64,000 nucleotides of DNA from assembly GCA_045543035.1 (NCBI GenBank), contig JAZQMA010000055.1, positions 3,190 through 67,189 on the forward strand, written 5' to 3'. Shown here in pieces: positions 18,230-57,270 of this stretch. Both the position numbers and the translations under genes were made by a program. The notes below the pieces were generated by a model that was not told the origin of the DNA, did no database searches, and worked only from the letters and a program-made list of their open reading frames with translations. The stretch is from Acutalibacteraceae bacterium. GTDB lineage: Bacteria > Bacillota > Clostridia > Oscillospirales > Acutalibacteraceae. Position 1 is the stretch's first letter; every line of letters starts with the position of its first letter.

Positions 18230-18973
18230 ATGCCACAGAGAATGGGAAAATATACAATCGAATTAGAGAACACTCCGTCAATTATAGGCTATGCAGCAGT
18301 GGTTGGAGAAAAAGAGGCGCAGGGACCTCTCGGTCAATGCTTTGATAAAACCTGTAAGGATGCCTTTTTCGGAGAAAAAACCTTTGAAAAAGCAGAAACG
18401 AAAATGCAGAAAATGACAATCGAAACCGCAGTCAAGAAATCAGGTCTTTCCAAAAATGATATTCAGATTGCCTTTGCTGGTGACCTTTTAAACCAATGCA
18501 TCGGTTCATCTTTTGATATGAGGGATTTAGGCTTTTGCTTTGCAGGGCTTTACGGTGCTTGCTCAACTATGGCTCTGTCCCTAGCCCTTGCAGGAATTTT
18601 TGTTGATTGCGGTGCAGCAAAAACTGCCCTTGCCGCCGCATCATCCCATTTCTGCTCAGCAGAAAGGCAATACCGCTTTCCCCTTGAATATGGCGGTCAG
18701 CGTAGCCCCGCAAGTCAATGGACAGTTACAGGCGCAGGTGCAGCAGTAGTTGCCGAAAAGAAAGAAAACGCGCCCACTATTGAGAAGGTTATAATCGGCT
18801 CCGTCAGGGATTTGGGTATAACCGATGTTAATAATATGGGAGCTGCTATGGCTCCTGTTAGTGTTAAACTAAGACCATACAAAACAAAAAGGTATGGTCT
18901 TTCTACACAAACAATTTTAAGAAAGGATAACACACTAAACAACAATGAATGTAACGTTTGCACAATCGCATAA
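18230..18973 (+). pseudogene. spoVAD: spoVAD, 5' part only; homology ends near 18857
   Basis: Residues 1-209 match the SpoVAD thiolase-like fold (FAGDLLNQ, LYGACST, ERQYRFPLEYGGQ, DLGITDVNNMGAAMAP). The tail VSVKLRPYKTKRY... is unrelated and AT-rich, and about 130 expected C-terminal residues are missing. Confidence 0.8.
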
Positions 18974-19071
18974 ATGTTACATTCATTGTTGTTAATATTA
19001 GCTCACAATTATATCAACTAAAAATTTATCAATAATATTAATGAAATACATCGTTTAAGTATACTTGTTAT

Positions 19072-21537
19072 TTAAATACTGTTATTTTCAATATTATTTT
19101 TGGCTTTTTCAAGCACCTGAATTCGATTAAGATGTATAGTTTCCCAAAAATTCTCATCAAAAATTTTATTATTAACAGCTACATTTTCAAAACATTGTCG
19201 TATTTTTAGATATAAATTCTTTGCTTCTCCATAATTACTATTCTGCAATGAATTCAAGCAATCAATTAAATATTCTATTATTTCTCCCAATGTATCACAT
19301 GAATACCAGTATGGATTTACGCGTGGCTGTTGCCTTGCTTCATAAACCTGTTTCATTTCAATAAAAAAATCATAAAACTTATTGGTTTTTTCACTGATCA
19401 TACTTCCTTCATGGTCCGCAAAAGCACCGGAAACTTGTTCGAAAGCCGACATTACAATTAAGATTCGTTGGGCTAGAAAATTCGACTTAGGATCTTTTTT
19501 CATATCTAAAAGATCAAAATATTTAAATTCACTTTCAAATACAGATATATATTCCTTGATGGATAGACTTAGAGTAAACACCATCACCATATCTGCATAA
19601 CACTCAGAAAAGAAAAAAGCAATATCATTAATAATATTTGTTAAAGTTGTTTCACTATTATTCCCGGTAATAAGTTTTGTTTTCTGAAAATTAATAGTTT
19701 CAAAGAGTTGGTGTTTTTGTAAACTTGTTAGTTCTTTGTGTTCTTTTAGATAAGCAGCTATAATTTTACCTAGTATTGAAGGGTCTTCTAACACGGTTTC
19801 TAACGATGCTTTTACATCGACTTTAAGATATCTCAAATATCTAGAGTCGATATCATTAATCCCAAGACCAAAGTATATATGACTGGAAAACTTATCATAT
19901 ACAGTATACTCAGGAATATACAAGTTAATTGCTGTTTCAATAGCCACACAATTAATAAAATATTTTATTCTTTCTTCTCTGCACCTATGCTTATCAGTTA
20001 ACAAATGTGCTACCTCATGAAGAATTGATGTCATTATTAAAAATGGATCACTTATTGAGGTGTAAGGCAACTCAATATATAGAATACTATCACATGGTGG
20101 ATTATCATCAGGAATTATAGGCATTGTTTTTATTCGACGACACAACTTTGGAGTTGTTAAACAAGCAAATCCATCTGTTTCCTCAGGCCGATTCGGAGAA
20201 TATTCTATGTTTTGTAAATATGTAGAGACCAAATTTGAATATGCATTATAATACTCTATCATTCGAACACTAAAGTTATACGTTTTAGGAAGATAGCCTA
20301 TTTTTTCCGTAAAAAATGGTTCTGATTCAACTATTTGTTCATTTAGTTCCTTACATGCTCGCAAATATTGTAAAATTGATTTTTTGAATGCAAATAAATC
20401 TTGATTGTGTTGCTTGCTAATATGCAACCACTTACTTAACACAGAAATACTATCAATCAATAAATAACAAATATCGTCTTGTATATCACTATAGCTCATA
20501 TTTACCATTGCGTTTACCAATTCTAACAACGGCTTTTTCCATCCATAATCATAATCCTGTATATCGTTTGCAAGTCCATCAATAATTTCATTGCATACGT
20601 TAGACAGTTCCTTAGACTTTGGCATTGTTTTATTAGTAACAATATACTCTTCTGCGATTATTATCACAAAATTTTCAAATGTTAAATATATATCATCACT
20701 TGGATTATAATATTTTTTTAAAAACTGCAATAAATTTTTTGTAGTAACATTTTTAAGACTAATTAAGAAATGCCTATTGCTAGAATTGTAAAACATTTTT
20801 GCGGTTGGAAAAATGTTTTGCAAAGTTTTATAAACCTTTTTGTTATAAAGTTTTTTTGTTGGTATGCCCATTATATTTACTGTGGAAATTAACTCTCCAT
20901 TTGATGATACTTCGAGTAAACTTTCATTCTCAATATATTCTTTAGAATTATATATTGTCAATATATGGTTAACCCAACTCGCATTTTGCAAATAATTACT
21001 TAAAAATGTTAGTGTTTTTATTTCAGATGTTTTTACTAATAAAACAAAATCACATAGATCTACTGAATAATAAATTAGATATTTAATGCTAAGTAATTTT
21101 TGTTTTCTTAAGATTTCTCTAATTTTTTTGTTAATGGAACCCACGGTATGAAATTTTATCTCTGTATTTGTAAAAAGCAAAAAAACGCCCAAAAAAAGAG
21201 AATCATCGTTCCAAAAATTCTTTAATAAAATATCATCTTTGGTTGTTTTGTTCTCTCTAACAATATACATTGAATTATAAGAAAAATCACCATTTAATGT
21301 TTCTGATAATTTTTTGCTGTCTATTTCTATTATGGAAGGAACGGAAAATCCATCAGTACTCCTAACTTTATATGGCAAAGTGAAATCATAATGCTCAAAA
21401 GAAATATACGGCAGCAAGGGGTCGTCCGAAACATGTTTTATGTCATCTATAACACTTAATGGTTTTTTTACATTCTGGGTTGTTTTGCAAAACAAAATAT
21501 TTCTAATATCAAACATCGTTACTATCATCCTCTTCAC
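19072..21537 (-). CDS. Large hypothetical protein with HExxH metallopeptidase-like motif
   Basis: 821 aa. It has SILHEVAHLL, and further downstream FFSECYADMV (IrrE/SprT-like spacing). No P-loop was seen. Its start overlaps the upstream gene by 29 nt. Confidence 0.7.
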   Translation of the reverse strand: MKRMIVTMFDIRNILFCKTTQNVKKPLSVIDDIKHVSDDPLLPYISFEHYDFTLPYKVRSTDGFSVPSIIEIDSKKLSETLNGDFSYNSMYIVRENKTTKDDILLKNFWNDDSLFLGVFLLFTNTEIKFHTVGSINKKIREILRKQKLLSIKYLIYYSVDLCDFVLLVKTSEIKTLTFLSNYLQNASWVNHILTIYNSKEYIENESLLEVSSNGELISTVNIMGIPTKKLYNKKVYKTLQNIFPTAKMFYNSSNRHFLISLKNVTTKNLLQFLKKYYNPSDDIYLTFENFVIIIAEEYIVTNKTMPKSKELSNVCNEIIDGLANDIQDYDYGWKKPLLELVNAMVNMSYSDIQDDICYLLIDSISVLSKWLHISKQHNQDLFAFKKSILQYLRACKELNEQIVESEPFFTEKIGYLPKTYNFSVRMIEYYNAYSNLVSTYLQNIEYSPNRPEETDGFACLTTPKLCRRIKTMPIIPDDNPPCDSILYIELPYTSISDPFLIMTSILHEVAHLLTDKHRCREERIKYFINCVAIETAINLYIPEYTVYDKFSSHIYFGLGINDIDSRYLRYLKVDVKASLETVLEDPSILGKIIAAYLKEHKELTSLQKHQLFETINFQKTKLITGNNSETTLTNIINDIAFFFSECYADMVMVFTLSLSIKEYISVFESEFKYFDLLDMKKDPKSNFLAQRILIVMSAFEQVSGAFADHEGSMISEKTNKFYDFFIEMKQVYEARQQPRVNPYWYSCDTLGEIIEYLIDCLNSLQNSNYGEAKNLYLKIRQCFENVAVNNKIFDENFWETIHLNRIQVLEKAKNNIENNSI

Positions 21538-22918
21538 TTATACAATAGTATTTTAATGTATCATTAATAATTGTATTATCAAAAACTTTAAAGTTATAGT
21601 TTATTATATTATTGCAATAGGTTTCCAAAACTAAGTACACTTCTTCCTCCACCTCATACAGTTTAATCATAGTCTTCTTTATTTCATCTGTAAAGTCCTT
21701 GATTGTTGATTCGTTTTCAGATTTATATTCTGATACAAAAGATAGCAATAATATTGAAATATAGCTAATCTCGTATTCTTTTTCTTTTTCTTCTTCTTTA
21801 GTGAAAGGTCTACTACTCCGACAAACACATATATGCTTTATTTTTATTGCAAAAGCATAAAACAAAGACATGATCTCTTTGGTATAACTTGATGTAGATT
21901 CCGAATTTGAAGAAGAATACTGTATTTTTTCTATTACTGATTTTGCTGTCCAACAGTCCGTTCTTTGTGATAAAAAAACTACTAAGGCAACTAAAATATT
22001 CTTCTTCAAAGTGTCTTTGTCTTTTAAATTTTCGGTGCTCTCTTGTTTTTCTGTTTCAACAAACAACTCCTCAATTAAGTTTACCACACTTTGAACAAAA
22101 AAACCTCTATTTTTTTCTATATATTCTTTATTCGTATTAAACGAGTTGTTAAATACTTCTAACAAAAAATGAATAGGATTGAAATCCGAATTATTATTAA
22201 AAGCAATTACTGTTTTTATTACCGAATAACTTAATGGGGTCCAGTTGTCGCTTTCGCCTGACGACAAACTATTAAACAAATAATAACCTAAGTTATATAT
22301 AATGGTATAATGTAGTTCTTTTTGTAAAACGGTTTTTGGGTAACCACTCTTTCTATGACTTAATTTTATATCGATGTATTGTTTTACTTGTTTTTTTACA
22401 TTTGCAATGTTCGAAAAGAAACAAAACAGTATATAAGTATGTAACAAGATGCCAGATAATAATATCACTATTTGACAAATTGCTAAAAACAATTTATTAG
22501 CACTTTGTGCATAAACCAAAACAAAACAAGATATTAAACATAAAACAAATAACATTTTGTGTTTTCTTCCAAATTTTGCTTCTATTATGTATTCAGTTAA
22601 AATATTAAACGATCTTTTTCCAAAAAACAAAGAAAAACTTGATAAAATGATATTCATGTACGAAATCGCCGATAGTTTTTCTAGAAACTTGGTAGCTTCA
22701 AACCCATGAGCATCTAAATTTGTTAGTATTTCGCCATATAATGCACTTGCTTTTTCAATCACATTAACATTCAAATCAAATAAGTCATATACTAGATACA
22801 TCAAACTAATAATGAAGAAAGTAATAGCAGGGATAATTATAATGCGTCTAAGATGATATTTAACTAGTTCCATAACATTAAATAATACTTTTTTTATTTT
22901 TTTCAACATACATCCCAT
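21509..22918 (-). CDS. Hypothetical membrane protein (about 4 N-terminal TM helices plus a cytoplasmic domain)
   Basis: 469 aa with hydrophobic segments in the first ~170 residues. It overlaps, and is probably co-translated with, the 821-aa gene. Confidence 0.65.
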   Translation of the reverse strand: MGCMLKKIKKVLFNVMELVKYHLRRIIIIPAITFFIISLMYLVYDLFDLNVNVIEKASALYGEILTNLDAHGFEATKFLEKLSAISYMNIILSSFSLFFGKRSFNILTEYIIEAKFGRKHKMLFVLCLISCFVLVYAQSANKLFLAICQIVILLSGILLHTYILFCFFSNIANVKKQVKQYIDIKLSHRKSGYPKTVLQKELHYTIIYNLGYYLFNSLSSGESDNWTPLSYSVIKTVIAFNNNSDFNPIHFLLEVFNNSFNTNKEYIEKNRGFFVQSVVNLIEELFVETEKQESTENLKDKDTLKKNILVALVVFLSQRTDCWTAKSVIEKIQYSSSNSESTSSYTKEIMSLFYAFAIKIKHICVCRSSRPFTKEEEKEKEYEISYISILLLSFVSEYKSENESTIKDFTDEIKKTMIKLYEVEEEVYLVLETYCNNIINYNFKVFDNTIINDTLKYYCISEEDDSNDV

Positions 22919-23636
22919 CCTAAAACAAAACGGATTTCCAACAATCTTTATTTGCTGAAAATCCGAATATGATAAAATATACTAAACTCTATTTTGTCTT
23001 TTATACTCTTGATAAGACAAAGCTCTATGATTCCTAGGACCAATATTTTGCGGAACAATTGCTTTTTCATTATCCTTTATTGCATCAGAATCGTGAACAC
23101 AGGAGCTTGGAATAGAAAGATCTGAACAAAAATTTGCACTACAATTTTTCCTGTTTCTGCTTGCTAAATAACGATTGTTAGCATTAGACAATCTACTCAT
23201 CAACCCACCTCATGTCAAGACATAATAACACCTTGTATATTATATTCAGTTTCCGCAAAAATGTCAAGAGAAAAAACAAAATTAACAAAATATTCATATT
23301 CTTCGTTTTTTCATCTTTTTTAGAAATTGTGTCAAATCTAGTGTTTTCAGCAATAATACTATTTTCAACACAACATTTATTATTAAAAATTTTGTAATTA
23401 ACAATAGTTTTACTATTATTTAATTCTTTGAACACTTATAAAATTGTTAATTCACACCTATTTTTATTTCAACTTTAGCTTTATTAGTGGATTACATACA
23501 ACTTCTTATGCTTTAGATGTGATATAGGATTTCTAAATAATATTTATTGCTTCATATTTTAAATTATCCTTATTATATGCATATTAAGAAACTAACATAA
23601 ATAAAAACTCTATTTTATTAAAAAGTTTTAATGTAT

Positions 23637-23932
23637 CTCCATATATATATGACTAAAAATTCAAAATACTTCACAAAAATTTTCAAAAATATTTAAAATC
23701 GTGAAAATCGACAAAAAACGACACCGCTTTTCGTGCAACTACAACAACACGGTGTTATATATATATCCTTATGAAAGGAGTTGGGGATAAATATGAATCT
23801 CCCGTAAAACCAAACAATAATAAATAGAGGTTGATTTTAATGAATACAAGTAAAAAGCAATCGGCATGTCCCATCATGACGAAAGAGAACTAAACGCTAT
23901 TAAAGGAGTTACCAAATACATTAGTAAAAAGG
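23637..23932. repeat. Degenerate copy of the ICE left-end control region (direct repeat of 30909-31216)
   Basis: CTCCATATATATATGAC...CGTGAAAATC...GAAAGGAGTTGG.GATAAATATGAAT...TTGATTTTAATGAATACA... aligns along its length with the copy at 30909. A ~10-nt deletion frameshifts the first ORF (MNTSKKQSACPIMTKEN*). Confidence 0.85.
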
Positions 23933-24046
23933 TTTATCAAAAATGCAATAATTAATTGTGAAGTTAAATTTTTTAAACACATCTGCTAACTCGGGAGAGC
24001 GAATTAACATATAAACACCCCCAAGCTACAAAACACAATAATATAC

Positions 24047-24120
24047 GGGGCATTAGCTCAGATGGGATGAGCGCTTGACTGGCAGTCAAGAGGTCAGGAG
24101 TTCGATCCCCCTATGCTCCA
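24047..24120 (+). tRNA. tRNA-Ala (anticodon GGC)
   Basis: Hand-folded cloverleaf. The acceptor stem GGGGCAT/ATGCTCC carries the G3:U70 Ala identity pair, the anticodon loop is CTGGCAG and the T-loop is TTCGATC. There is one A-C mismatch in the T stem, and CCA is not fully encoded. Confidence 0.8.
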
Positions 24121-24128
24121 CCGAGGTC

Positions 24129-24175
24129 AAAATATCCGAATTTTGTCATCAGTGGTGACATATTCGGATATTTAA
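24129..24175 (+). terminator. Long hairpin after the tRNA
   Basis: AAATATCCGAAT...TGTCA-TCAGTGG-TGACA...ATTCGGATATTT inverted repeat. Confidence 0.6.
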
Positions 24176-24550
24176 ATTTTATCAGTTGCTTCACTAATTA
24201 GGCTAGTTGTCATCTATACTAATTACTGTAATATTAAAAACACAAAAAAATTGAAACATACAAAATGGTGGAAATTCAGGTTATTACCAAACCCAAGCAT
24301 CTTAGGAATGGTTCGGTTTTTAAAAATACAATAGGTTGTATATACTCCTATTAATTTATTTGAAAGTACTGTAGGCTATAAGATGTTTTTTATGTTGAAA
24401 CGGAGAATATTAAAATTCAGTTACAGGATGTGTCAATTTTAATTAAATGGTTATTATAAATTAATTAAGCATGTTTTTTTTACAAAGTTTGACATTAAAT
24501 ATTTTTTATGGTACATTGTATTAGGCATATATACGTGGGAGAGAAATTTT

Positions 24551-25555
24551 ATGAATAAAGAATCCAGGATAGACAAAATAATGAATACAACATTTTTTAA
24601 AATATTTTGCATTTTAGATAGTTTAATTGGCATTATTTCCGCTTTTTTTACTGAAAACAGTCTAGTGGGGAAAGTTGTGTTTTCCCTTGCAGTGTTCATA
24701 ATGTTTGTTGTTGGGTGTTTTTTAGCATTTCGCTATAAAAAATTTATAGATGTTGATAAAAAAAATATAGAGTTATCTACGGAAATAAGTAGTAAAAATG
24801 CAAAAATAGATTTGTTAGAACAAAATATACACAATGGTGTAAAATACACAAACAATGAGGTTGTTGTCACTTTAGATAAAAGCAAAAAGTTATATCGCTT
24901 TGAATTTATAAAAGAATTCGAGATAATTTCCGAAAATGCACCTAAATGGTATTCTGCACAGTTTTATGCAAATAAAATATTGAAAGATAAAAAAGAGTCG
25001 AAAAAATACTATAGGGATAATGTTATTAAATGGGATGACTTAAAAGTACGAGCTACTGTTTCATATTTATACCCCGGTTCTCCGAAGTTTACTGATCCGA
25101 CAAATTTGGTAATTGATAATATTACTGATGAAAATAATTACATTCCCTTTAATATTCAATACATAACTTTTCGTAACAAAAGAAATTTAGATATAAAGAA
25201 AGGTACTAAAGTAAAATTAAAGTACTGTTATAACGTTCCTGTGCATCTATGGGGTAGTTACTTGAATAGAACTATTAGTTATTTCGGGGAACCTACTATT
25301 GTAAAATTAAAGTACGACCTGGATACAGAGCTTGATATTAAAGTTTCCTCGTTAAGTGGTGTCGGTGGAGAGCCTCTTGTTACTGAAGATTACAGCACAA
25401 ATGTTGATGAAGAAAACCAATATGTAGTTTACACTATAACATTAAAATCACAGCCTTTTGCCAAATATAGAATATGGTGGGATTCTGAAAAATATTTTGA
25501 GAATGACAAAACAACGGAAGATACCGCTGATCATTCGCAACTAACAACTTATTAG
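24551..25555 (+). CDS. Hypothetical 2-TM protein with coiled-coil and beta-rich C-terminal domain
   Basis: 334 aa with two hydrophobic helices in residues ~15-60. The stop lies 14 nt before the start of the radical SAM gene. Confidence 0.65.
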   Translation: MNKESRIDKIMNTTFFKIFCILDSLIGIISAFFTENSLVGKVVFSLAVFIMFVVGCFLAFRYKKFIDVDKKNIELSTEISSKNAKIDLLEQNIHNGVKYTNNEVVVTLDKSKKLYRFEFIKEFEIISENAPKWYSAQFYANKILKDKKESKKYYRDNVIKWDDLKVRATVSYLYPGSPKFTDPTNLVIDNITDENNYIPFNIQYITFRNKRNLDIKKGTKVKLKYCYNVPVHLWGSYLNRTISYFGEPTIVKLKYDLDTELDIKVSSLSGVGGEPLVTEDYSTNVDEENQYVVYTITLKSQPFAKYRIWWDSEKYFENDKTTEDTADHSQLTTY

Positions 25556-25569
25556 GAGAATTTCACGAA

Positions 25570-26388
25570 ATGAAATATAGTGAAAACAGCAGGGCTTTCG
25601 CCTCTTTTTCAGGAAAATGTCCATATGAATGTTCGCACTGTTATACGTTTTCTAAAGAATTTGTTAGCAAAGGTAAAGCCGATGTTAATAGTATCATTAA
25701 CGAACTCAATTCTAAAAAGAATTTTAACATTGTTTACATTTCTGGTTACAAAGAGAATTTTGTCGATCCCGCAAAAGGAATGTCTTTATTGGAATCTGTT
25801 TATGACAATTTCTGTTGTGATATACTAATTACCACTAGAGCTGTATTTGATGTAAATAATACAAATAGGTTATTTGCGTTAAACGCTCGAATGCAAAGTA
25901 ATGGTAATCACTTGTATTTTTGTGTCTCAATACCAGCATATGAATCATATCGGCTGTTGGAACCCAACCCAATAATCCCTTCCCCTTCCCAACGATTACA
26001 ATTTTTAAAAAATATATATTTGGGTGGAATCAATGCAATACTTACTATTAGGCCTTTGTGCCCAAATACTTTTGTACCAATTTCAGAAAGTATTAGACTA
26101 ATAAATGAGATTGATGGATATTGTTCAGCCGTTATCTCAAGTGGTATTGTTGTTGATAATTTTATATTGACCAAATTAAATGAGTTTCCTGATGTCTTTG
26201 ATTATGAAGAAAAGAAACTGATGAATTGCTTAGAAAATGATATTAATGTAAAATATGTTAATGTCAAAAAAGAGTTAGAACAAGTTGAGAACACTTGTAA
26301 AAAATCTGGCATTCCGTTCTTTCAAAATAGTTTACCAGCAATTAATTACATATTTAGTCTAAAGCACATCGAAAATAAGGATACCTAG
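25570..26388 (+). CDS. Radical SAM protein, SplB/COG1533 (DNA-photolyase-like) type
   Basis: CPYECSHCY is a CX3CX2C motif near the N-terminus. ITTRA and SIPAYESYRLLEPNPIIPSPSQRLQFLKN...ILTIRPLCPN resemble the spore-photoproduct-lyase-like family pattern. Confidence 0.7.
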   Translation: MKYSENSRAFASFSGKCPYECSHCYTFSKEFVSKGKADVNSIINELNSKKNFNIVYISGYKENFVDPAKGMSLLESVYDNFCCDILITTRAVFDVNNTNRLFALNARMQSNGNHLYFCVSIPAYESYRLLEPNPIIPSPSQRLQFLKNIYLGGINAILTIRPLCPNTFVPISESIRLINEIDGYCSAVISSGIVVDNFILTKLNEFPDVFDYEEKKLMNCLENDINVKYVNVKKELEQVENTCKKSGIPFFQNSLPAINYIFSLKHIENKDT

Positions 26389-26892
26389 AAAGGCGATTTA
26401 GTTTTTCTAGGTATTCTTATTTTCAAGCAGCAGATAAGCACTCCAGTTTCACCTCACAGGAAAAGGAATAATTTGAAAATGATGCAGCAAAGAAAAAACA
26501 CTACAAAATAAGATTATACAAATACAAAAAAGCAGCTTTGTAATTGCATTACCAGAACACAAGAATGATATAAATTTCTCTATGCCATTGTCATAAAAGC
26601 CTTACTTCGACTTGTTTTGCATGGCGTTATTGTTACAATACAGCGGGATTGTGTCGATAAGAGATGAGTTGATATCGGCATAATGTTGGAAAAGGAACCA
26701 AAAAACATGAAAGATTGTGTAAAAATGAAGAAAAAAACGCCTAAATTGTTGAAAATTGGAAATTCGTGTGTTATTATACTCTTGAAAGAAAGTACAGAAA
26801 AACTACAGAAAATAAGACAAGTTATTATGGATGAAAGTGCTTTGGATAAAAAAGGTGTGGACAAGCCCACAGGGGCAAAAGGGGAAATAAAA

Positions 26893-27492
26893 ATGGCAAA
26901 TATAACAGAAAAATCCCAACAAAATAATTTGTATTTGTTTACTAATCTTGATGGAAAAACATCAGATGACTTAGTTACAAAATTCGAATTAGATAAAATG
27001 ATCCCAGTTAAATTGGATAAAGTATTTGACTATTGCAGCATTGAGGTTTTACCTACCGATTTTAAAACTTATGAAGAGATTCCTGAAATATCTGAAATCG
27101 TTGATAAAAAAGGACTTATTTTGGGTGCTGTTGCAATAAAAAATAAGCAAATTAACATTTTATATAAAAAAGATGACACTCCACATCGTCAAAAATTTAC
27201 TGTTGCTCACGAACTTGCTCATTGTTGTTTGAATGCTGAGAAAATTGCAGTCGATGGACACGTAGCGTTTAGATTAGATGTGGATATTAAAAATGCTGCA
27301 GAAGACGAATATGAAGCTAATGTTTTTGCTGGCGAACTTCTTATACCTAAAAAAACACTTGATTCGCTATATAAAGTTATAAAAAAGCCAAAACTTGAAA
27401 TACTTTCTAAAATATTTGATGTTTCTGAAAATGTAATGAGAGCAAGATTAAAATATTTAAAATTGCCTTTTGAAGACTCAGTAAATGTTTAA
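26893..27492 (+). CDS. ImmA/IrrE-family (COG2856) metallopeptidase
   Basis: FTVAHELAHCCL ... EYEANVFAGELLIP. Start taken at MANITEK, which has a Shine-Dalgarno. The in-frame upstream extension to 26683 contains an AbrB-like KIGNSCVIILLKE segment, so the true start is uncertain. Confidence 0.7.
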   Translation: MANITEKSQQNNLYLFTNLDGKTSDDLVTKFELDKMIPVKLDKVFDYCSIEVLPTDFKTYEEIPEISEIVDKKGLILGAVAIKNKQINILYKKDDTPHRQKFTVAHELAHCCLNAEKIAVDGHVAFRLDVDIKNAAEDEYEANVFAGELLIPKKTLDSLYKVIKKPKLEILSKIFDVSENVMRARLKYLKLPFEDSVNV

Positions 27493-27506: not shown

Positions 27507-28076
27507 GTGATTCAAGTGCCCAATATTAATGATTGGTTTTCTTCACTAGATATTGAAAATGGCGAAGAGCCCGAATCAGTAGATAATGCCCCAGAAGGAA
27601 GTAATTATACATATAAAGATACAGATATTGTTGATTTTTATAAAAAAGTAAATGATGAAAATAAAACGCCAGAAGAAAATATTCGAGACGGACATATAAG
27701 TAATTTGTTAGAATCCTATGTCAATGCATACAAATCCAAGATAACAACTCAAAAGTGTTTTAGATGTATTCTGTTTCTCATATCTATGTTAATCATAGTC
27801 GCATTTGCTTCTGTTTTTGTTAGTTTACTTGTAAACTTTGACTTTTCATCAGATTTAGATACAAGTGAAAGCCTTATTGGCTTAATATCTGTGTGTGTTA
27901 CATTTCTCACTTCAGTTATAGGAATATTAAAAATTATAGTAAAATACTGTTTCCCTGAAAATGATGAAAAATACATAACAGAAATAGTAAAGGCTGTGCA
28001 ACAAAATGACCTTGAAAACAAAAAGGAAAATTTAAAACATAAGTTAGCAATGAAAAATGATACCAAAAAACTGTAA
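27507..28076 (+). CDS. Hypothetical 2-TM protein
   Basis: 189 aa with a GTG start 14 nt after the ImmA stop. It has an acidic N-terminus, two hydrophobic helices, and a terminator hairpin at 28091-28124. Confidence 0.55.
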   Translation: MIQVPNINDWFSSLDIENGEEPESVDNAPEGSNYTYKDTDIVDFYKKVNDENKTPEENIRDGHISNLLESYVNAYKSKITTQKCFRCILFLISMLIIVAFASVFVSLLVNFDFSSDLDTSESLIGLISVCVTFLTSVIGILKIIVKYCFPENDEKYITEIVKAVQQNDLENKKENLKHKLAMKNDTKKL

Positions 28077-28482: not shown

Positions 28483-29571
28483 TTAGTCTTCGATTTTTGA
28501 AAATTCTACATCTTCAACTAAATCATCCGCTGAAAAGTCTGTTCCATTTTTATTTTGTTTTTTGTAAAGATATTGAATATAATAATTACATAATTCTATT
28601 CCATATCGATATATATAATGCTTAAAAACATTATCATCGATGCTATCAAGCATCTTCTTTTCAGCGTTTTTTGATAGTTCTTCAAAATCAAGTTTATCTT
28701 TTTTTGCTTTATCTGCAAGTTTATCTATATCTATGATCTGTTTCTTTTTAGTTGAAATAACAAGTACAGCACGAATAAAGATCTCATTTTGTGTGTAGTA
28801 CTTTAACATAAAACATGCAATTGAACCTTTTAATTTATCATTTGCATCATATTCATCAAGTGTATCTTTTTCATAAAAATGTTCCTCAAAGGCTTTTTGT
28901 TTGCTATTATATAATATGCTCGATTTCTTTTTTTTCAAAAAGTTTTGTAAAGTATCTTCACAAAAATCCGATGTGGTTAATCCTGAAAAACTTTCGGCAT
29001 TCTCCCAATGATGCTCATCTTCTTTTGGAAAATTATATAAGAGTTGTACTTGAAAATCGTCTTTTTCATGAATATGCTTTTTTTCACTGGTCAAAAAAGC
29101 TAAATTTTCTACGAACTGATCAGATATATGTTTTAATTGTGTGCATGGTTGTGTGTAAACATGATCAGCAAGAAGATTACCAGCATAAATATTTGAAATT
29201 TGTTTTAATTGGTTTTCTATCTTATATCTACATATTGTGCTAGTGCTGTTTAAAACGGTGTGAAACAAATCTCGTTGTGCTGTGGTTAATTCTAAAATGC
29301 TTTTGGTATCATCCGTTATTTCGCCATATTTTTCGATTATCGCCAAACAACAATTAATTGTAAAAATGCCAACAGTAGCAATTATTCCCCATGTTGTTAA
29401 TGAAACATCTGATGTTTTAGTATCAACTTCTATTAAATAAAGTTTTTCTCCAAAATATGTTACTATTAAGGAAAACCAAATTCCAGATAGTTTACCAAAA
29501 AGCATGGATACAAGCCAGTGCTTCGAAGTGAAATTTTTAATTTCAGGTATAAATTTTTTAATCGACTTCAT
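28483..29571 (-). CDS. Hypothetical membrane protein (2-3 N-terminal TM helices plus a cytoplasmic domain)
   Basis: 362-aa AT-rich ORF with no recognised motif. Confidence 0.6.
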   Translation of the reverse strand: MKSIKKFIPEIKNFTSKHWLVSMLFGKLSGIWFSLIVTYFGEKLYLIEVDTKTSDVSLTTWGIIATVGIFTINCCLAIIEKYGEITDDTKSILELTTAQRDLFHTVLNSTSTICRYKIENQLKQISNIYAGNLLADHVYTQPCTQLKHISDQFVENLAFLTSEKKHIHEKDDFQVQLLYNFPKEDEHHWENAESFSGLTTSDFCEDTLQNFLKKKKSSILYNSKQKAFEEHFYEKDTLDEYDANDKLKGSIACFMLKYYTQNEIFIRAVLVISTKKKQIIDIDKLADKAKKDKLDFEELSKNAEKKMLDSIDDNVFKHYIYRYGIELCNYYIQYLYKKQNKNGTDFSADDLVEDVEFSKIED

Positions 29572-29894: not shown

Positions 29895-30506
29895 TCATTT
29901 AAAAATGAATGAATTTTCTAAATTCATCGAAATAAAAGGTAAATTAAGTGCATCAAGCTGTTGCATAAAATTGCTGTTATTAAATATTATTGAAATTGTT
30001 TTGTAGTCATTATTGAAAAAAGATTGTTTTAAAGTTTCTTCTTTACACCCTGAACTTAATAGCATTTTCATAAACCAAAAGTTGGATTGAAAACCTACTT
30101 CGTCTGTGTGATTTGTTATTTTATAAGTGAGCCATTCGTTCAAAGTTGCATTTAAACCAAAATAATCATGTCCGTTTTCTTTAAATGCTATACCAATTAC
30201 CCAACAGAACTTAAACTTGTTAATATGTTTAAAATTCCTACTCAATCTATTTATAAATTCTCGTACAACAATATGTTCATTAAATAACGATTCTTTTATA
30301 AAAATATATCCGTTTTTGGTTAAACATTTACTTCGAGTAACATTCAAATCTTTATGTTTGCCTATACATTTTCCATCGGGAATAATGAATACTTTTTTTG
30401 TCATGTTTGGTACTTTACTAAAGTTTTTAACATAAGGCTCATATTGTTCTTTAATTTTTTCGTAATATTTATCATTGATTCTTTTTAATTCTTTTGAATA
30501 ATCCAT
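29895..30506 (-). CDS. Hypothetical protein
   Basis: 203-aa ORF in AT-rich DNA with no recognised motif. Confidence 0.5.
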   Translation of the reverse strand: MDYSKELKRINDKYYEKIKEQYEPYVKNFSKVPNMTKKVFIIPDGKCIGKHKDLNVTRSKCLTKNGYIFIKESLFNEHIVVREFINRLSRNFKHINKFKFCWVIGIAFKENGHDYFGLNATLNEWLTYKITNHTDEVGFQSNFWFMKMLLSSGCKEETLKQSFFNNDYKTISIIFNNSNFMQQLDALNLPFISMNLENSFIFK

Positions 30507-31721: not shown

Positions 31722-31767
31722 AAATGAGGTGTATAAAAACTAAATAAATAGGATGGTCGGATGCTAT

Positions 31768-32877
31768 ATGGCAATCCGATTTTTTGATATGTTTGCAGGT
31801 ATCGGTGGGTTTCGTTCAGGGTTAACTGCCATAGGTGGCTTTGAGTGTGTCGGTCATTGTGAAATTGATAAATATGCTAATGCTGCCTACTGTGCGATGT
31901 ACGAAACCGGAGGTGAGCAATATTATGAAGATGCACGGCAAATTAACCCCGAAGCCTTACCCGATTTCGACCTGCTCTGTGCAGGATTTCCTTGCCAAGC
32001 TTTCAGCGTTGCCGGAAAACGAATGGGATTCAGTGATACAAGAGGAACTCTCTTCTTTGATGTTGCCCGAATCCTTGAAGTTAAAAGACCTGCATTTGTA
32101 TTCTTGGAAAACGTTCAAGGCTTGTTATCGCATGACTCAGGCGAAACACTTAAAACCATCTACTCCGTGCTTGTTGAAATGGGGTATAATCTCGAATGGT
32201 GTGTGCTTAACAGCAAATATTTCGGAGTCCCCCAACAAAGAAGGCGGTTGTATATTATCGGATATCTTGATGGACGATGTACCGGACAAATATTTCCTGT
32301 CGAATGCTGCAATGGAGAAAATCTCAAGGAAGTCATTCCCGGCAGCCAAGGACAAAGAGTCTACGACATAACAGGTGTTTCGTGTACATTGTGTGCAGGT
32401 GGAGGTGGTATGGGTGGTAAAACAGGATTGTATTTCATTGATATGAATAGTGAACCTGTAATAACTCCCCAAGCACGATGCATAACTGCACGACAAGATT
32501 CAGGTGTAAGCAATCGCAGAGGAGAACATTCAGGTGTACTGATAGAAGATGCTCCGAGAGCAGTATTGACACCCGATAGAGAAAAGGTTCGTCAGCAAGG
32601 CAGACGGATGAAAGAACCCGATGAGGAAATGTTCACAATAACTGCTCAAGACAGACATGGCGTTTATCATAAGGGGAGAATCCGTAAGCTTATGCCCATT
32701 GAGTGTTGGCGTTTGCAAGGGTTTGAAGACAAACAATTTAATAAGGTTGTCGCATCCGGTATTAAGGATGGACAGTTATATAAGATGGCTGGTAACTCTG
32801 TGAGTGTACCGGTCATTTCTGCTATTGGCAGAAAAATAAGAGAAGTTAATGAAAAATATCAAATTGTAAAGGAGTGA
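31768..32877 (+). CDS. DNA (cytosine-5)-methyltransferase, no adjacent endonuclease
   Basis: Motif I is FDMFAGIGGF, motif IV GFPCQAFS, motif VI ENVQGL, motif VIII QQRRR and motif X GNSVSVPV. Confidence 0.9.
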   Translation: MAIRFFDMFAGIGGFRSGLTAIGGFECVGHCEIDKYANAAYCAMYETGGEQYYEDARQINPEALPDFDLLCAGFPCQAFSVAGKRMGFSDTRGTLFFDVARILEVKRPAFVFLENVQGLLSHDSGETLKTIYSVLVEMGYNLEWCVLNSKYFGVPQQRRRLYIIGYLDGRCTGQIFPVECCNGENLKEVIPGSQGQRVYDITGVSCTLCAGGGGMGGKTGLYFIDMNSEPVITPQARCITARQDSGVSNRRGEHSGVLIEDAPRAVLTPDREKVRQQGRRMKEPDEEMFTITAQDRHGVYHKGRIRKLMPIECWRLQGFEDKQFNKVVASGIKDGQLYKMAGNSVSVPVISAIGRKIREVNEKYQIVKE

Positions 32878-34730: not shown

Positions 34731-35711
34731 ATGAAAACCCCTGTATCAAGGGTTGGTAACAAAAGTTCAATACTCAACATTCTCTATGCTGTATTTCCTT
34801 TACAGTACGGCAGATTTGTTGATGTGTTCGGTGGTTCCGGTAGCGTCCTTCTGGGAAAAGAGCAGGTTGACTCCTTCGAGGTTTACAATGACTATGACAG
34901 GAATTTGGTAAACCTTTTCCATTGCATGAAGGAACGAACTATGGCAACAATTCGTGAAATCGGCTTTTGCAATCTTAACTCACGTGAGGATTTTAACTCT
35001 GTTAAAAAGTTCTTTGAGTTTGAAGAATTTAAAGATGATTTTTACAGAGAAGAATTACTGTTGACAGAACTGATGTTTCCACCACCCGAAGCAAATGAAC
35101 TTAATGAAATAAGAACTCGTATTACTAAAGACTATGATGTCCGTAGAGCAGCAATGTTTCTCAAACTCTTACGATACAGTTATTCAAGCGGCTGTAAGTC
35201 TTTTGCATCACAGCCATTTGATATACGAAAGTTGTTTGAGCTTATAAAACAACTTGAAAACAGAATGGCAAATGTAGTGGTTGAAAACCAGGACTTTGAA
35301 ACGCTTATAAAACACTACGACAGACAGGATACTTTTTTCTATGCTGATCCCCCATATTTTTCTACTGAAGATATGTATGCTGTAGGCTTTAACTGGAATG
35401 ATCACGTGCGCTTAAAGGATACACTTTCCAAAATACAAGGTAAGTTCTTGCTTTCATATAACGATTGTCCTGAGATAAGGGAACTGTACAAAGGCTTTTC
35501 TATGCTTGATTTTTCTCGTACTCATTCTATGGCACAAAGGTACGAAGCCGGAAAAGAATTCAAAGAGTTGCTTATATCAAACTATGACTTATACGAAAGA
35601 GAACGAAGCAAACCACAACAGTTAACCTTATTCAGTTGTTATGGTGATGATAAATATGATTATGAAAAAGTGTTAAAGGAGTGTATCGTCCAATGCAGAA
35701 TTCAGAATTAA
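34731..35711 (+). CDS. D12-class N6-adenine DNA methyltransferase (Dam-like), no adjacent endonuclease
   Basis: FVDVFGGSGSV AdoMet motif and the catalytic FYADPPYF (DPPY) motif. Confidence 0.85.
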   Translation: MKTPVSRVGNKSSILNILYAVFPLQYGRFVDVFGGSGSVLLGKEQVDSFEVYNDYDRNLVNLFHCMKERTMATIREIGFCNLNSREDFNSVKKFFEFEEFKDDFYREELLLTELMFPPPEANELNEIRTRITKDYDVRRAAMFLKLLRYSYSSGCKSFASQPFDIRKLFELIKQLENRMANVVVENQDFETLIKHYDRQDTFFYADPPYFSTEDMYAVGFNWNDHVRLKDTLSKIQGKFLLSYNDCPEIRELYKGFSMLDFSRTHSMAQRYEAGKEFKELLISNYDLYERERSKPQQLTLFSCYGDDKYDYEKVLKECIVQCRIQN

Positions 35712-39557: not shown

Positions 39558-40304
39558 ATGAAAAACAGAACAATTATAGGTATCATCTGCATGGCGCTTG
39601 CTGTTGTAATGACCTTCGTAGTTGCTCCTATTGTTACGAATATTACAAGCGACACAACAAAGATAGTACGACTTACACAGGATGTGAAACAGGGCTCACC
39701 CATTACAGAAGATGTAGTAGAGGTGGTTAAGGTTGATAAAGATTCAATCCCTTCAGGTGCTATTGAAGATAAAGCTGATGTCGTAGGTAAATATGCTGCT
39801 TCCAATCTGTATAACGGTGACTTCTTCACAAAGGATAAGCTCACCAAAGATGGTAATACTGCTGAAGATGTATTCGCAACACTTGACGGTAAACATGTAG
39901 CAATCAGCGTAACAGTAGACAGTCTTGCGGCAGGTGTATCAGGTAAGCTCCAGAACGGAGATATCGTAACATTCCTTATTGTCAACAACGACACTAACAA
40001 AGCAGTAACTCCTCCCGAACTTAAATATATGAAGGTTATAACCACAACTACATCGGGTGGTATTGATAAAGATGCAGTAATTAAGAATGAAGACGGAAGT
40101 TATGAACTCCCAAGTACAATTACTGTTCTTGCAAATACACAACAGGCAAAGTTACTTGCAGAATATGAAGGTAATGCAGAAATTCATGCGGCACTTGTAT
40201 ACAGAGGTGATAAATCAACTGCCGATAAGTTCTTATCCACACAGAATAGCTACTTTAAGAATAAAACAGAAACAACAACCGAAGGTGGTGCTGTGAATGA
40301 GTAA
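39558..40304 (+). CDS. CpaB/RcpC-like Flp pilus assembly protein (SAF domain)
   Basis: N-terminal TM helix, then VRLTQDVKQGSPITEDVVEVVKV SAF-like segment, in a Tad gene context. Confidence 0.65.
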   Translation: MKNRTIIGIICMALAVVMTFVVAPIVTNITSDTTKIVRLTQDVKQGSPITEDVVEVVKVDKDSIPSGAIEDKADVVGKYAASNLYNGDFFTKDKLTKDGNTAEDVFATLDGKHVAISVTVDSLAAGVSGKLQNGDIVTFLIVNNDTNKAVTPPELKYMKVITTTTSGGIDKDAVIKNEDGSYELPSTITVLANTQQAKLLAEYEGNAEIHAALVYRGDKSTADKFLSTQNSYFKNKTETTTEGGAVNE

Positions 40305-41019
40305 GTTTATTGCAGTTTGTGGCTCACCTGATAGTGGTAAAAGTTCTATTGCCATTAAGGTTGCACAGACCTTATATAACAAAGGAAAGAAAAGAGTCCT
40401 TTACTTTTCACCCGATTTGATGGTGCCTTGTATGGGTTACATCTTCCCTCATTGTAAGGGAAGTGATTTGTATTCAATCGGTAAGGTTCTTGATAAAACG
40501 GATGTGTATCGTGAAGATGTCCTTCGTAGCATTGTAACAACAAAGAATATGCCGAATTTCGGTTATTTAGGCTACAAAGCAAACGAAAACAAATACACAT
40601 ATGCAAGACCGACAGAAGACAAAATCAGTCAGTTGTTTATGAATATGAGAGAACTTGCTGACTACATAGTTATTGACTGTGTAAGCGACAGAAGTGACCT
40701 TATCTCTTCTCTTGCTAAAGCAGAAGCTGATGTTATTGTTCAGGTTGTAACTCCGACACTTAAATGCATGTCATACTATGCAGCTAACGGTGACCAGTTT
40801 ATTGCATTTGCAGACAAAGTGGTAAAGGTAATCAACATAAAAGATAATGATATCTATCTCCCTGTCGGTGAGGTCAAGGAACACTTTAAGGATGTTGTAA
40901 TCAAAATTCCTTACAGTCACTCCCTTAAACAGCAGTCTATCACAGGAACTTTATCAGAACATATCACCGATAAAGTCTTCTGCGATAGCATTTCGAGGTT
41001 AGCAAAGGTGGTGAGCTGA
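40297..41019 (+). CDS. ParA/MinD-like ATPase (TadZ/CpaE-like)
   Basis: AVCGSPDSGKSSIAIKVA deviant Walker A. It sits immediately before the CpaF gene. Confidence 0.55.
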   Translation: MSKFIAVCGSPDSGKSSIAIKVAQTLYNKGKKRVLYFSPDLMVPCMGYIFPHCKGSDLYSIGKVLDKTDVYREDVLRSIVTTKNMPNFGYLGYKANENKYTYARPTEDKISQLFMNMRELADYIVIDCVSDRSDLISSLAKAEADVIVQVVTPTLKCMSYYAANGDQFIAFADKVVKVINIKDNDIYLPVGEVKEHFKDVVIKIPYSHSLKQQSITGTLSEHITDKVFCDSISRLAKVVS

Positions 41020-42332
41020 TGAGCCAAATAATTGGTTTTTTCCCACTTCTTAATAGTGTACAGAAATATATCTCTGAAAACTATGCAGCTTCACTATCAG
41101 ACAAAGATAAATATGGTCAGTTGAGAACCTACATTGATAAATACTTGTATGACCACGATTATATGGTCGAAGGAATGAGCTTCAAACAACTGTCAGACAA
41201 GCTCTATTGTGAAATGGCTGAATACTCCATCTTAACAAAGTATTTAGGACGTGAGGATATTGAAGAAATTAATATCAACGGTTGGGATGATATTGCCATA
41301 ACATATACCGATGGTCACATTGAAAAGACTACGGAACACTTTTATTCACCACAACACGCTATTGATATTATCAAAAGACTTCTTCACCATTCGGGTATGA
41401 TTATTGATAATGCAACTCCTATGGCTCAAGGTCATTTGCCCGGTAACACACGAATCACAGCTCTTAAAGAACCTATTGTTGATGATGACATAGGTATCTG
41501 TGCATCAATCCGACTTTTGCACCCTTCAAGAGTTACAAAGGATGAAATCGTTAAAGGTAATAATGCAACACAGAAGATGATTGACTTCTTGTGCATGTGT
41601 CTCCGCTATGGTGTTTCTTTCGTTGTAGCGGGTGCAACCAGTTCAGGTAAAACAACACTCCTTAATGCATTGCTTTCAACAATTCCCGATAACAAGCGAA
41701 TATTCAGTATTGAATCAGGTTCTCGTGAATTATCTCTTGTTCGCAAAAATGATGATGTTACAACCAACAATGTAGTACATACATTATCAAGACCTTCTGA
41801 TAACGAAGCTTACGATATAACACAGGAAGATTTGGTTGTAGCATCCTTGCGATTCAACCCCGATATTGTAGTTGTCGGAGAAATGCGAGATACTGAAGCT
41901 TATTCTGCTGTTGAAGCATCCCTTACAGGTCATACTGTTGTATCAACTATCCATGCCTCTGCTGCCGATGCAGCTCATATGCGTTTAGCACTCCTTTGTC
42001 AAAAGCGTTTCCCTATAAACTTTAAGACATCGCTGATGCAGGCTGGTCAGGCATTTCCTCTCGTTGTTTACGCTCATAAGTTGGAAGACAATTCCCGAAA
42101 GATTATGGATATATCTGAATGTGTAATCACTCCTTCAGGCGAAAGAGAGTATCGCACATTATTCAGATACAATATTACAAGCAACACTATGCAGGGTGAT
42201 AACTACATAATCGAAGGTCATTTTGAACAACCCGAAATAATGAGTGATAATCTTAAACACAAGTTGATGCAGTTCGGTGTACCTCAAAGCGAGTTGAAAA
42301 AGTTCTTGCAGAAGGGAGCTGATTATGTATGA
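41019..42332 (+). CDS. cpaF: CpaF/TadA-type secretion ATPase (VirB11/PilT superfamily)
   Basis: Walker A GATSSGKTTLLNAL, Asp box/Walker B VVVGEMRD and His box GHTVVSTIHA. Confidence 0.85.
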   Translation: MSQIIGFFPLLNSVQKYISENYAASLSDKDKYGQLRTYIDKYLYDHDYMVEGMSFKQLSDKLYCEMAEYSILTKYLGREDIEEININGWDDIAITYTDGHIEKTTEHFYSPQHAIDIIKRLLHHSGMIIDNATPMAQGHLPGNTRITALKEPIVDDDIGICASIRLLHPSRVTKDEIVKGNNATQKMIDFLCMCLRYGVSFVVAGATSSGKTTLLNALLSTIPDNKRIFSIESGSRELSLVRKNDDVTTNNVVHTLSRPSDNEAYDITQEDLVVASLRFNPDIVVVGEMRDTEAYSAVEASLTGHTVVSTIHASAADAAHMRLALLCQKRFPINFKTSLMQAGQAFPLVVYAHKLEDNSRKIMDISECVITPSGEREYRTLFRYNITSNTMQGDNYIIEGHFEQPEIMSDNLKHKLMQFGVPQSELKKFLQKGADYV

Positions 42333-43255
42333 TTGTTTTTTCAATCATATCATGCATATGCGTTATAGTGGCAATTGCCTGTTTCCTTGACCTTACACCC
42401 GAAAGAGTAACGAATGATTTAATTCACATCATTACTCCTCACGATACCCTTCGTGAGAAAGCAAGGGCTATAAGAGGAAACAAAAAAAGACATGGTGTAT
42501 ATACCAAGCTTATGGAAATGAAAACTGCATTGGCAGTAACAGGTAAATCCAAAAACTTCGTAATCGTTTGTTTTTCTTCCGTTATCTTGTTTGCTGTTGG
42601 TGCATTCGTTGCTGTCCTTATTGATAACCTTTTCTTGCTCCCGGCTCTCTCAATATCACTTGCTTTAGTACCTTTTGTGTACACTGCAAATACTCTTGCG
42701 ATATATGAAAAAACAACAAAGGAAGAATTGGAAACAACTCTTTCAATTATCACAACATCATATATCCGTAATGATGATATTGTTTCGTCAGTAAGAGAGA
42801 ATATCCAGTATATAAAGCCACCTATAAAAGATGTTTTTATAGCATTTGAAACAGAAGCAACTCTCGTTTCATCGAATATAAAACATGCTTTATATAACTT
42901 GAAGGATAAAATTGATGATGAGATTTTCCGTGAGTGGTGCGACACCTTGATTCAATGTCAAGATGACCGAACATTAAAAGACACCTTGCTCCCCATTGTT
43001 GCAAAGCTTACTGATGTTCGTATAGTAAACAGCGAACTTAAAACGATGCTTTCTGCTGCAAAGAATGAGTATTGGGTAATGGTGTTATTGGTTGTCGGCA
43101 ACATACCCTTGTTATATATGCTTAACAAAGACTGGTTTAACACTCTGATGTATGAAACATCAGGAAAAGCCGTGTTAGGTATATGTGGCGTGGTAATTTT
43201 AATAACAGCTTTGTTCATGATGAAATTTACAAAGCCAATAGAATACAAACGATGA
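42329..43255 (+). CDS. TadB-like (T2SS-F family) membrane protein
   Basis: 308-aa polytopic protein overlapping cpaF by 4 nt, in the position of tadB. Confidence 0.6.
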   Translation: MIVFSIISCICVIVAIACFLDLTPERVTNDLIHIITPHDTLREKARAIRGNKKRHGVYTKLMEMKTALAVTGKSKNFVIVCFSSVILFAVGAFVAVLIDNLFLLPALSISLALVPFVYTANTLAIYEKTTKEELETTLSIITTSYIRNDDIVSSVRENIQYIKPPIKDVFIAFETEATLVSSNIKHALYNLKDKIDDEIFREWCDTLIQCQDDRTLKDTLLPIVAKLTDVRIVNSELKTMLSAAKNEYWVMVLLVVGNIPLLYMLNKDWFNTLMYETSGKAVLGICGVVILITALFMMKFTKPIEYKR

Positions 43256-43268
43256 GGAGGTTGAATAT

Positions 43269-56687: not shown

Positions 56688-56711
56688 ATTTTATAGAAAG
56701 AAGTTGATAAT

Positions 56712-57269: not shown

Positions 57270-57270
57270 T

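Follow-up and report, generated by a model that had tools for sequence, protein, structure and literature searches.

An operon for a putative membrane-anchored zinc metallopeptidase of an undescribed family, carried by a mobile element in an Acutalibacteraceae bacterium

The window analyzed here is a 64,000-nucleotide (nt) stretch of contig JAZQMA010000055.1 (positions 3,190 to 67,189) in assembly GCA_045543035.1 of an Acutalibacteraceae bacterium. Its subject is an overlapping pair of genes, one encoding a membrane protein (the partner) and the other an 814-amino-acid (aa) protein with an HExxH motif (the large protein), together with a candidate small gene, a terminator and a promoter upstream of them. 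We read these parts as a self-contained accessory operon of a mobile element that would encode a membrane-anchored zinc metallopeptidase complex of an undescribed family and would likely serve as conflict cargo acting through a proteolytic switch, a reading to which we assign a probability of roughly 45%. It is carried by a catalytic motif set that is invariant across 83 diverse relatives of the large protein, by natural fusions of partner and large protein, and by the anatomy of the operon and its occurrence on mobile elements.

Both genes of the pair are encoded on the minus strand:
19072..21516, minus strand: large-protein gene, 814 aa plus stop (maximal open reading frame to 21537, 821 aa from a GTG)
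21509..22909, minus strand: membrane partner gene, 466 aa (maximal open reading frame to 22918, 469 aa)

The initial annotation had described two overlapping minus-strand open reading frames (ORFs) of 469 and 821 aa, and these are present at 21509..22918 and 19072..21537. The likely start of the large gene is the ATG at 21516, which is preceded by GAGGA and yields 814 aa, because the identical protein in the NCBI record (P0001) is 814 aa long and a 41%-identical homologue (P0002) aligns with the large protein from this Met. The length of 821 aa holds for the maximal ORF from the GTG but not for the likely product, and the overlap, given before as 29 nt, has a realistic length of 8 nt (ATGTTTGA) that spans the TGA of the partner gene (junction sequence: GAGGATGATAGTAACGATGTTTGA) and fits translational coupling of the two genes. 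For the partner, an NCBI record of the identical protein (P0005, 466 aa) fits a start at M4 (22909). The pair is indeed very AT-rich, with a guanine-plus-cytosine (GC) content of 27.9% compared to 40.3% in the left flank and 37% in the remainder of the element, and the reported absence of a P-loop was confirmed, as neither protein contains a Walker A motif.

A word-indexed search of a metagenome-derived protein library returned four relatives of the large protein and, with the partner as query, only the partner itself. With an exhaustive hidden Markov model search built on those four sequences, the family grew to 995 clusters at the 50% identity level (E <= 1e-3), of which 312 reach E <= 1e-30; full-length proteins of ~770-870 aa form the majority. 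The named genomes that carry the family all belong to the Oscillospirales, and the identified source samples of the clusters are animal- or human-associated. Conservation was analyzed in a set of 83 diverse members that are 15-43% identical to the window protein, and all residue numbers refer to the 814-aa protein. P484, H500, E501, H504, R511, R516, E638, D642 and Y749 were invariant (83/83), R513 (96%), A641 (98%), Y656, R684 and C753 were conserved in at least 95% of the sequences, and Y640 in 89%. The resulting motifs are located as follows:
20005..20019, minus strand: HEVAH (H500, E501, H504), predicted zinc ligands and catalytic base
19969..19986, minus strand: RxRxxR arginine cluster (R511, R513, R516) just past the HExxH helix, defined by conservation
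19591..19605, minus strand: ECYAD (E638...D642, ExxAD), predicted third zinc ligand and helper Asp

Invariant as they are across 83 diverse sequences, these motifs are not a product of chance. An HExxH followed about 130 residues later by ECYAD had been noticed before; HEVAH occupies residues 500-504 and ECYAD residues 638-642, both are conserved, and the gap between H504 and E638 is 134 residues. Since the HExxH...ExxAD pair is invariant, it is fair to infer that the large protein is a zinc hydrolase. HExxH with a later ExxAD and a conserved Tyr is the signature of gluzincins such as thermolysin (M4) and neprilysin (M13), an assignment that no database match accompanies, and the large protein would here be the founding member of an unannotated, putative gluzincin family.

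No existing annotation covers this family. Searches of Pfam, PADLOC, NCBIfam and PHROGs with the large protein and the partner gave no match, and no profile library assigns either protein to any family, housekeeping families included. Diverse relatives likewise had no match in Pfam, NCBIfam or PADLOC, nor did six diverse zincins, three partners and one fusion in NCBIfam or PADLOC. None of 10 family clusters checked for names from any source was named, comparison of PDB sequences with profiles from three alignments returned noise only, and a word-indexed search with the 83-sequence profile retrieved 3 proteins only. Our literature searches found no description of the family, the architecture or the operon design.

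An AlphaFold model of the large protein, based on the 83-sequence alignment, had a predicted local distance difference test score (pLDDT) of 90.5 and a predicted template modelling score of 0.92, and divides the protein into the following parts:
20647..21516, minus strand: N-terminal domain, residues 1-290, predicted repeated ferredoxin-like alpha+beta units
20203..20610, minus strand: middle helical bundle, residues 303-438, as predicted by the model
19075..20169, minus strand: C-terminal zincin-like domain, residues 450-814, with a predicted three-stranded sheet, the HExxH helix and a long all-helical part

In the model HEVAH is located in a helix spanning residues 491-505 and ECYAD in a helix spanning 625-649, with five helices between them; a separate model of residues 440-814 (375 aa) had a pLDDT of 88.1. 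The best Foldseek matches of the N-terminal domain in the PDB were chlorite dismutase and coproheme decarboxylase (E 2.6e-3 to 0.1), and they were weak, with TM-scores normalised to the target of 0.5-0.6 and 6-14% identity. A conserved His is absent from this domain in the 83-sequence alignment, and the likeness to chlorite dismutase is weakly suggested, at the level of the fold only. With the full model as query, Foldseek matched only the N-terminal ferredoxin-like repeats and no peptidase in the PDB, and nothing in BFVD, where one M48-annotated phage protein at E 0.09 was not counted. The metal motif is classical, and the domain surrounding it, as modelled, is not recognisably that of any known peptidase. 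The large protein probably carries a new catalytic domain, confidently modelled, around a classical zinc motif.

Hydropathy analysis placed transmembrane (TM) segments of the partner at residues ~21-54, 81-100 (weak) and 116-175, the last holding two helices. These three to four segments agree with the approximately four N-terminal TM helices described initially. The C-terminal part of the partner is a ~300-aa helical domain that is presumably cytoplasmic, and the large protein has no TM segment. The initial annotation had left it to be seen whether the two genes stay together in other genomes. Among the ~20 distinct loci inspected, the partner gene was found immediately upstream of the large gene and on the same strand wherever upstream DNA was present, with a distance between them that ranged from a 14-nt overlap to 44 nt. 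Most loci have the partner as a single gene with TM segments; where that gene is complete, its product has a length of 467 (L002), 448 (L010), 509 (L025), 559 (L027), 499 (L022), 497 (L023), 571 (L030), 431 (L037), 471 (L039) or 438 aa (L044). In L028/L020, L031 and L042/43 it is split into a TM ORF and a soluble ORF, and in L033 the stretch of upstream DNA covered shows an ORF for a 259-aa protein lacking TM segments.

The strongest evidence that partner and zincin may act together at the membrane comes from proteins in which the two are fused. P0056, P0063 and P0095 (1174-1236 aa) combine a partner-like N-terminus of four TM helices with the zincin, and the N-terminus of P0056 matches the L002 partner (E = 1e-9). 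With positive residues on either side of the TM block and fusions that run from partner to zincin, the C-terminal domain of the partner and the enzyme would both be expected on the cytoplasmic side. Divergence is much faster in the partner than in the enzyme, a pattern that is common in conflict systems. In the main clade, partners could be linked to each other by BLASTP, mostly via the TM region. The window belongs to a clade of its own with L001 and L025, whose partners are 31% and, over 188 aa, 36% identical to the window partner, respectively. Homology between window-clade and main-clade partners was not established by BLASTP, hmmsearch or hhalign; the best alignment is colinear from TM2 to TM4 (E 0.0032, probability 10%), and the former are treated here as architectural equivalents of the latter and not as proven homologues.

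The earlier description of the pair as a two-gene module proved too narrow, as a conserved small ORF and a terminator upstream add further parts:
22921..22965, minus strand: intrinsic-terminator-like hairpin with a 14-pair stem and U-tract (terminator scan; free energy -17.0, z -3.5)
22982..23200, minus strand: candidate small ORF of 72 aa (MSRLSNANNRYLASRNRKNCSANFCSDL...), preceded by GAGGTGGG, in the position of the operon's first gene
23239..23267, minus strand: sigma-70-like promoter TTGACA-17-TATAAT, 12/12 consensus match, upstream of the small ORF

ORFs of 60-72 aa with a good ribosome-binding site also precede the partner gene, in the same orientation, in L002, L010, L023, L024, L025, L027, L028, L030, L039 and L044; several were also predicted by independent gene callers. 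The small ORFs of the main clade are homologous, with shuffle z values of 3.3-15.2 (10.5 for L010-L002, 15.2 for L027-L030, 5.3 for L002-L030 and 4.4 for L030-L024), and have the motifs S[YF]F[SC] and KG.SP in common. Between L002 and L039, 21 of the 26 identical residues are encoded by different codons, and nucleotide differences by codon position number 15/11/33, with an excess at the third position; this pattern indicates that the main-clade small ORFs are under purifying selection. Their products are long, hydrophilic and basic. The 72-aa ORF of the window stays a candidate first gene of the operon, because it has no significant similarity to the conserved small ORFs.

A hairpin with a U-tract lies between small ORF and partner gene in 11/11 loci, and in the window the space from hairpin to partner start codon is too little for another promoter. 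The promoter sequence at 23239..23267 is the sole perfect site in 18700-24600 and was identified by consensus match alone. Because of this arrangement of promoter and terminator, the small protein would be made in excess, and partner and enzyme would be expressed by terminator read-through. Two other explanations of the leader were considered and rejected: attenuation via the small ORF as leader peptide, since the distance from its stop to the hairpin varies from ~10 to 50 nt and the protein is under purifying selection, and a cis-regulatory RNA, for which the Rfam match was a spurious miRNA on the hairpin only. A second small ORF (23193-23435, minus strand, 80 aa, GTG start, hydrophobic C-terminal half), immediately upstream of the 72-aa one, overlaps the perfect promoter; it may not be a gene, as ORFs of this length are expected about 0.5 times per 1.6 kb by chance at 27% GC (rough estimate).

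The operon resides at the edge of an inserted element, as the initial annotation had noted when it placed the pair as the first cargo past a spoVAD junction:
18230..18973, plus strand: truncated spoVAD, 247 aa, Pfam SpoVAD match to profile positions 1-207 of 329
31753-32877, 34731-35711, 39558-44138, 45781-50238 and 53767-62611: C5 and Dam-type methyltransferases, Tad/Flp-pilus-like genes and further genes of the predicted conjugative element

The break in the spoVAD profile near 18870 (~codon 213) marks the left end of the element, and the gene pair is the first cargo inside this junction. Because it encodes a T2SSE-type ATPase, an RcpC-like protein, a TraG-like ATPase, a MobL relaxase, a Toprim protein and two DNA methyltransferases, the element is, by its gene content, an integrative conjugative element (ICE). 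The RcpC-like protein and the T2SSE ATPase make up its Tad/Flp-pilus-like genes, the Toprim protein is of the DUF3991-Toprim type, and a surface protein of 1485 aa that contains Listeria-Bacteroides repeats is encoded as well. L001 has the same gene order as this ICE for the last gene block. In a second Acutalibacteraceae metagenome-assembled genome (GCA_045577815.1, L028 5214-6100), spoVAD is broken at the same place, and ~170 nt of element-end sequence are common to both, including the inverted repeats AAGACCATAC...GTATGGTCTT and AATGAATGTAAC...GTTACATTCATT. The first cargo of that element is a 27%-identical version of the operon in opposite orientation, and with two spoVAD elements carrying divergent, oppositely oriented versions there, the position resembles a slot for cargo. 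Being a forespore gene, spoVAD would not fit the usual mode of developmental excision. Other sporulation genes are known to harbour gene-intervening elements (PMC5595907, PMC4191935). Our literature searches found no report of an element interrupting spoVAD.

Elsewhere the operon adjoins integrases at ICE edges (L039-41), has genes for replication, partition or coupling proteins as neighbours (L001, L002), adjoins a relaxase and IS66 (L042), shares a site flanked by S-layer genes with a single XerC-like integrase in Bengtsoniella (L023), or stands by itself amid housekeeping genes as a three-gene islet of low GC (L044-46, L031). Its GC content was below that of the flanks in every locus checked.

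Several further features were observed in the element. A tRNA-Ala gene (anticodon GGC; 24047-24122, plus strand) stands alone in cargo of 28% GC between the operon and the next cargo genes. A 269-aa protein (26683-27492, plus strand) carries a Peptidase_M78/CapP-like domain at its C-terminus (Pfam E 8.8e-16, PADLOC capP 2.7e-16, weaker RmrA) and is followed 14 nt past its gene by an ORF for a 189-aa protein without matches (27507-28076, plus strand); the two may form a separate ImmA-like switch or a defence-associated pair. Additional cargo ORFs of the AT-rich block at 24551-26388 (plus strand), 28483-29571 (minus strand) and 29895-30506 (minus strand) encode proteins of 334, 272, 362 and 203 aa that have no significant Pfam match and no PADLOC match. 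An Rfam DUF3800-XI RNA motif (60862-60908, plus strand; 39.4 bits, gathering score 37.8) is located within the maximal ORF of a DUF3800 protein gene (60796-61626).

Taken together, we infer that the large protein is a zinc-dependent peptidase at the membrane, and we propose the following working model. A strong promoter would drive synthesis of a small hydrophilic protein of ~65-72 aa, and an intrinsic terminator would let a fraction of the transcripts reach the coupled partner and peptidase genes, leaving the small protein in excess. The partner, with its four TM helices, would tether the 814-aa enzyme to the membrane on the cytoplasmic side, as a single polypeptide in some relatives. Zinc would be bound by H500, H504 and E638, with E501 as the general base and D642 and the invariant Tyr assisting, and the Arg cluster would adjoin the site. 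Cleavage of the small protein, speculatively the most natural substrate, or of a host or invader protein would then act as a proteolytic switch that changes the state of the membrane partner. The role would be that of conflict cargo (defence, abortive infection or exclusion) benefiting the element. This role is favoured because the module is mobile, occurs as islets and has a fast-evolving partner; it is speculative, and we would put it well under one half.

A number of results weigh against the metallopeptidase and conflict-cargo reading. On the side of the enzyme, Foldseek comparison of the C-terminal domain with the PDB gave a best E of 0.33 and TM-scores < 0.25 with no peptidase, and Pfam zincin models, scanned at a relaxed threshold on 24 C-terminal segments, stayed sub-threshold (MPTase-PolyVal in 3/24, M48 in 2/24) and were rejected as assignments. 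The Arg cluster, being invariant, could hint at a substrate that is anionic and not a peptide. A weak point specific to the window clade is the loss of family-wide residues of the N-terminal domain (TGxED, G41, G183, R397): the window protein and P0002, which is most closely related to it, lack G41, G183, G246, D249, R397, G400, P406 and P416, which are 82-98% conserved elsewhere, G246 and D249 forming part of the TGxED motif as its G and D. With these residues lost, the function that the N-terminal and middle domains have in most of the family may be altered in the window protein; the catalytic motif set is fully kept in both proteins. The small ORF of the window is not significantly similar to those of the main clade beyond a loose motif echo (SANFCSD). 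On the side of the role, tblastn with the window protein and a consensus did not find the family in PLSDB plasmids or INPHARED phages, blastn of the locus gave no match in plasmids, and a pattern scan of IMG/VR found none. PADLOC-DB 2.0.0 had no match for the window pair, six zincins, three partners and one fusion, which agrees with the failure of the initial annotation to match the pair to a named system. Defence-like neighbours were occasional among the ~20 loci inspected and include a KAP NTPase and a giant N6-methyltransferase-helicase in L002 and RVT_1 and PRTase-CE in L024. Of the earlier proposal of phage-defence cargo, the part that stands is the occurrence as mobile-element and low-GC islet cargo; a link to defence is plausible but speculative, given the empty PADLOC search and the scarcity of such neighbours. 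As a separate observation, the fused partner-zincin gene encoding P0056 lies ~3 kb from RVT_1 and PRTase-CE (L024 8757-11207), which may constitute a retron-like defence locus.

A bolder version of the conflict-cargo reading would make the operon the first of a new three-component class of conflict systems in gut Clostridia, with no part related to known families. An enzyme of an unseen metallohydrolase fold would sense the invader via its N-terminal domain or the partner, cleave the excess small protein and thereby unleash the partner with its four TM helices, which might, for example, damage the membrane. We consider this possible, though doubtful.

The alternative that survives best, although we judge it rather unlikely, is that the module regulates the mobile element or serves its communication: the anchored peptidase would process or destroy the small protein, itself a regulator or the precursor of a signal, and in this way control excision or transfer. 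Its logic would resemble that of ImmA/ImmR, BlaR1/BlaI or peptide-pheromone processing. A small gene behind a leaky terminator, presumably expressed in excess and carrying the motif S[YF]F[SC]...KG.SP, would suit such a module, as would the frequent position of the operon beside integrase, replication or partition genes at element ends. Yet the small proteins have no helix-turn-helix (HTH) or other Pfam domain in the gene tables and no signal peptide by eye, the operon also occurs as a stand-alone islet where there is no element to regulate, and its position and orientation vary within related elements.

An addiction (toxin-antitoxin-like) or entry-exclusion module, with a partner that is toxic or blocks incoming DNA and whose activity is set by small protein and peptidase, appears unlikely. 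The compact low-GC layout at element edges and in islets, the upstream small gene with its presumed excess and the membrane component are all compatible with it, but an enzyme of 814 aa and three domains is far larger than the known components of toxin-antitoxin or exclusion systems, and profile searches revealed no similarity to known toxin or antitoxin families.

It is decidedly unlikely that the HExxH protein is not a peptidase but another metal-dependent hydrolase or a binding protein that would handle, at the membrane, an anionic non-protein substrate (for example a lipid head group, a precursor of the cell envelope or a nucleotide). The RxRxxR cluster adjoining the metal motif, the lack of structural or profile similarity to solved peptidases and an N-terminal fold that is common to cofactor-binding enzymes speak for this possibility; the combination of HExxH with a distant ExxAD and an invariant Asp and Tyr, the classical gluzincin signature of M4 and M13 peptidases, and the conserved small protein next door as a natural substrate candidate speak against it. 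Highly improbable, finally, is a locus for a ribosomally synthesized and post-translationally modified peptide (RiPP) with the small ORF as precursor peptide, the large protein as maturation enzyme or peptidase and the TM protein as exporter or immunity factor, since the precursor-sized gene, terminator and enzyme genes recall the layout of lantibiotic operons but neither a known RiPP enzyme nor a transporter or leader motif came to light, the Foldseek matches to NisB were noise (probability 0.2, TM-score < 0.1) and the small proteins are long, hydrophilic and basic.

In the protein library searched, the putative metallopeptidase family comprises ~1000 clusters of an 800-residue protein without a name, profile model or structural relative and with constant companions, in an unusual operon design of small gene, terminator, membrane anchor and enzyme. 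Whichever role is true, be it defence, element regulation or addiction, the operon would bring an uncharacterised function to the ICEs that move genes among gut Clostridia.

Compared with known systems, the proposed enzyme most resembles the M4/M13 gluzincins in its catalytic residues, as HExxH is located on one helix, Glu and an Asp four residues on are located on a later helix, and at least one Tyr is invariant. It differs from them in having no profile or structural match to solved or curated peptidase families; the RxRxxR cluster, the alpha+beta domain at its N-terminus and a membrane partner of its own come in addition. At 134 residues, the gap between H504 and E638 exceeds the about 20-76 residues of known gluzincin families.

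The M78 peptidases (ImmA/IrrE, with ImmR in ICEBs1 and CapP-CapH in CBASS) offer a parallel in that a zincin of a mobile element would switch a small neighbour by proteolysis. M78 proteins are roughly 150-250 aa long with a spacing of roughly 25-30 residues between HExxH and Glu. In contrast, the large protein has 814 aa, a far more distant third ligand and, like six of its relatives, no PF06114 or capP match; it has no HTH-containing neighbours and has a membrane anchor. The M78 protein at 26683-27492, 4 kb from the operon in the same cargo region, was readily detected (E 8.8e-16), unlike the large protein, so the search is able to recognise a true member. SprT/Wss1-type zincins have His and not Glu as third ligand; the large protein has no Pfam match to them, and the residues following its HExxH are G/R/R/R with no conserved His. 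The resemblance to IrrE/ImmA/SprT-type enzymes suggested in the initial annotation was consequently abandoned, in view of the missing PF06114 and SprT matches, the 134-residue spacing and the absence of a conserved third His.

BlaR1/MecR1 (M56) and HtpX/Ste24 (M48) are similar in combining a zinc peptidase at the cytoplasmic face with ~4 TM helices and a third ligand of the ExxAD type, and BlaR1 cleaves a small cytoplasmic protein, as proposed for the enzyme of the operon. They differ in that the TM part is here a separate protein or N-terminal fusion instead of being interleaved, and no extracellular sensor domain is present; the M48 model PF01435 matched 2/24 family members below threshold (best E 0.034). 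Lit (peptidase U49) and gasdermin-protease pairs are alike in the idea of a mobile-element defence module with a protease as effector or trigger, and differ in that Pfam and PADLOC were empty here and the operon has no gasdermin-like partner. Lantibiotic-type operons have the same order of a small first gene, a hairpin terminator and larger genes that was found in 11/11 loci, but the present operon lacks RiPP enzymes, an ABC exporter and leader motifs, and its small proteins are not bacteriocin-like. The family, its architecture and its operon design are undescribed in the libraries and literature searched, and the protease-based switch on a mobile element that they may form is of a known kind.

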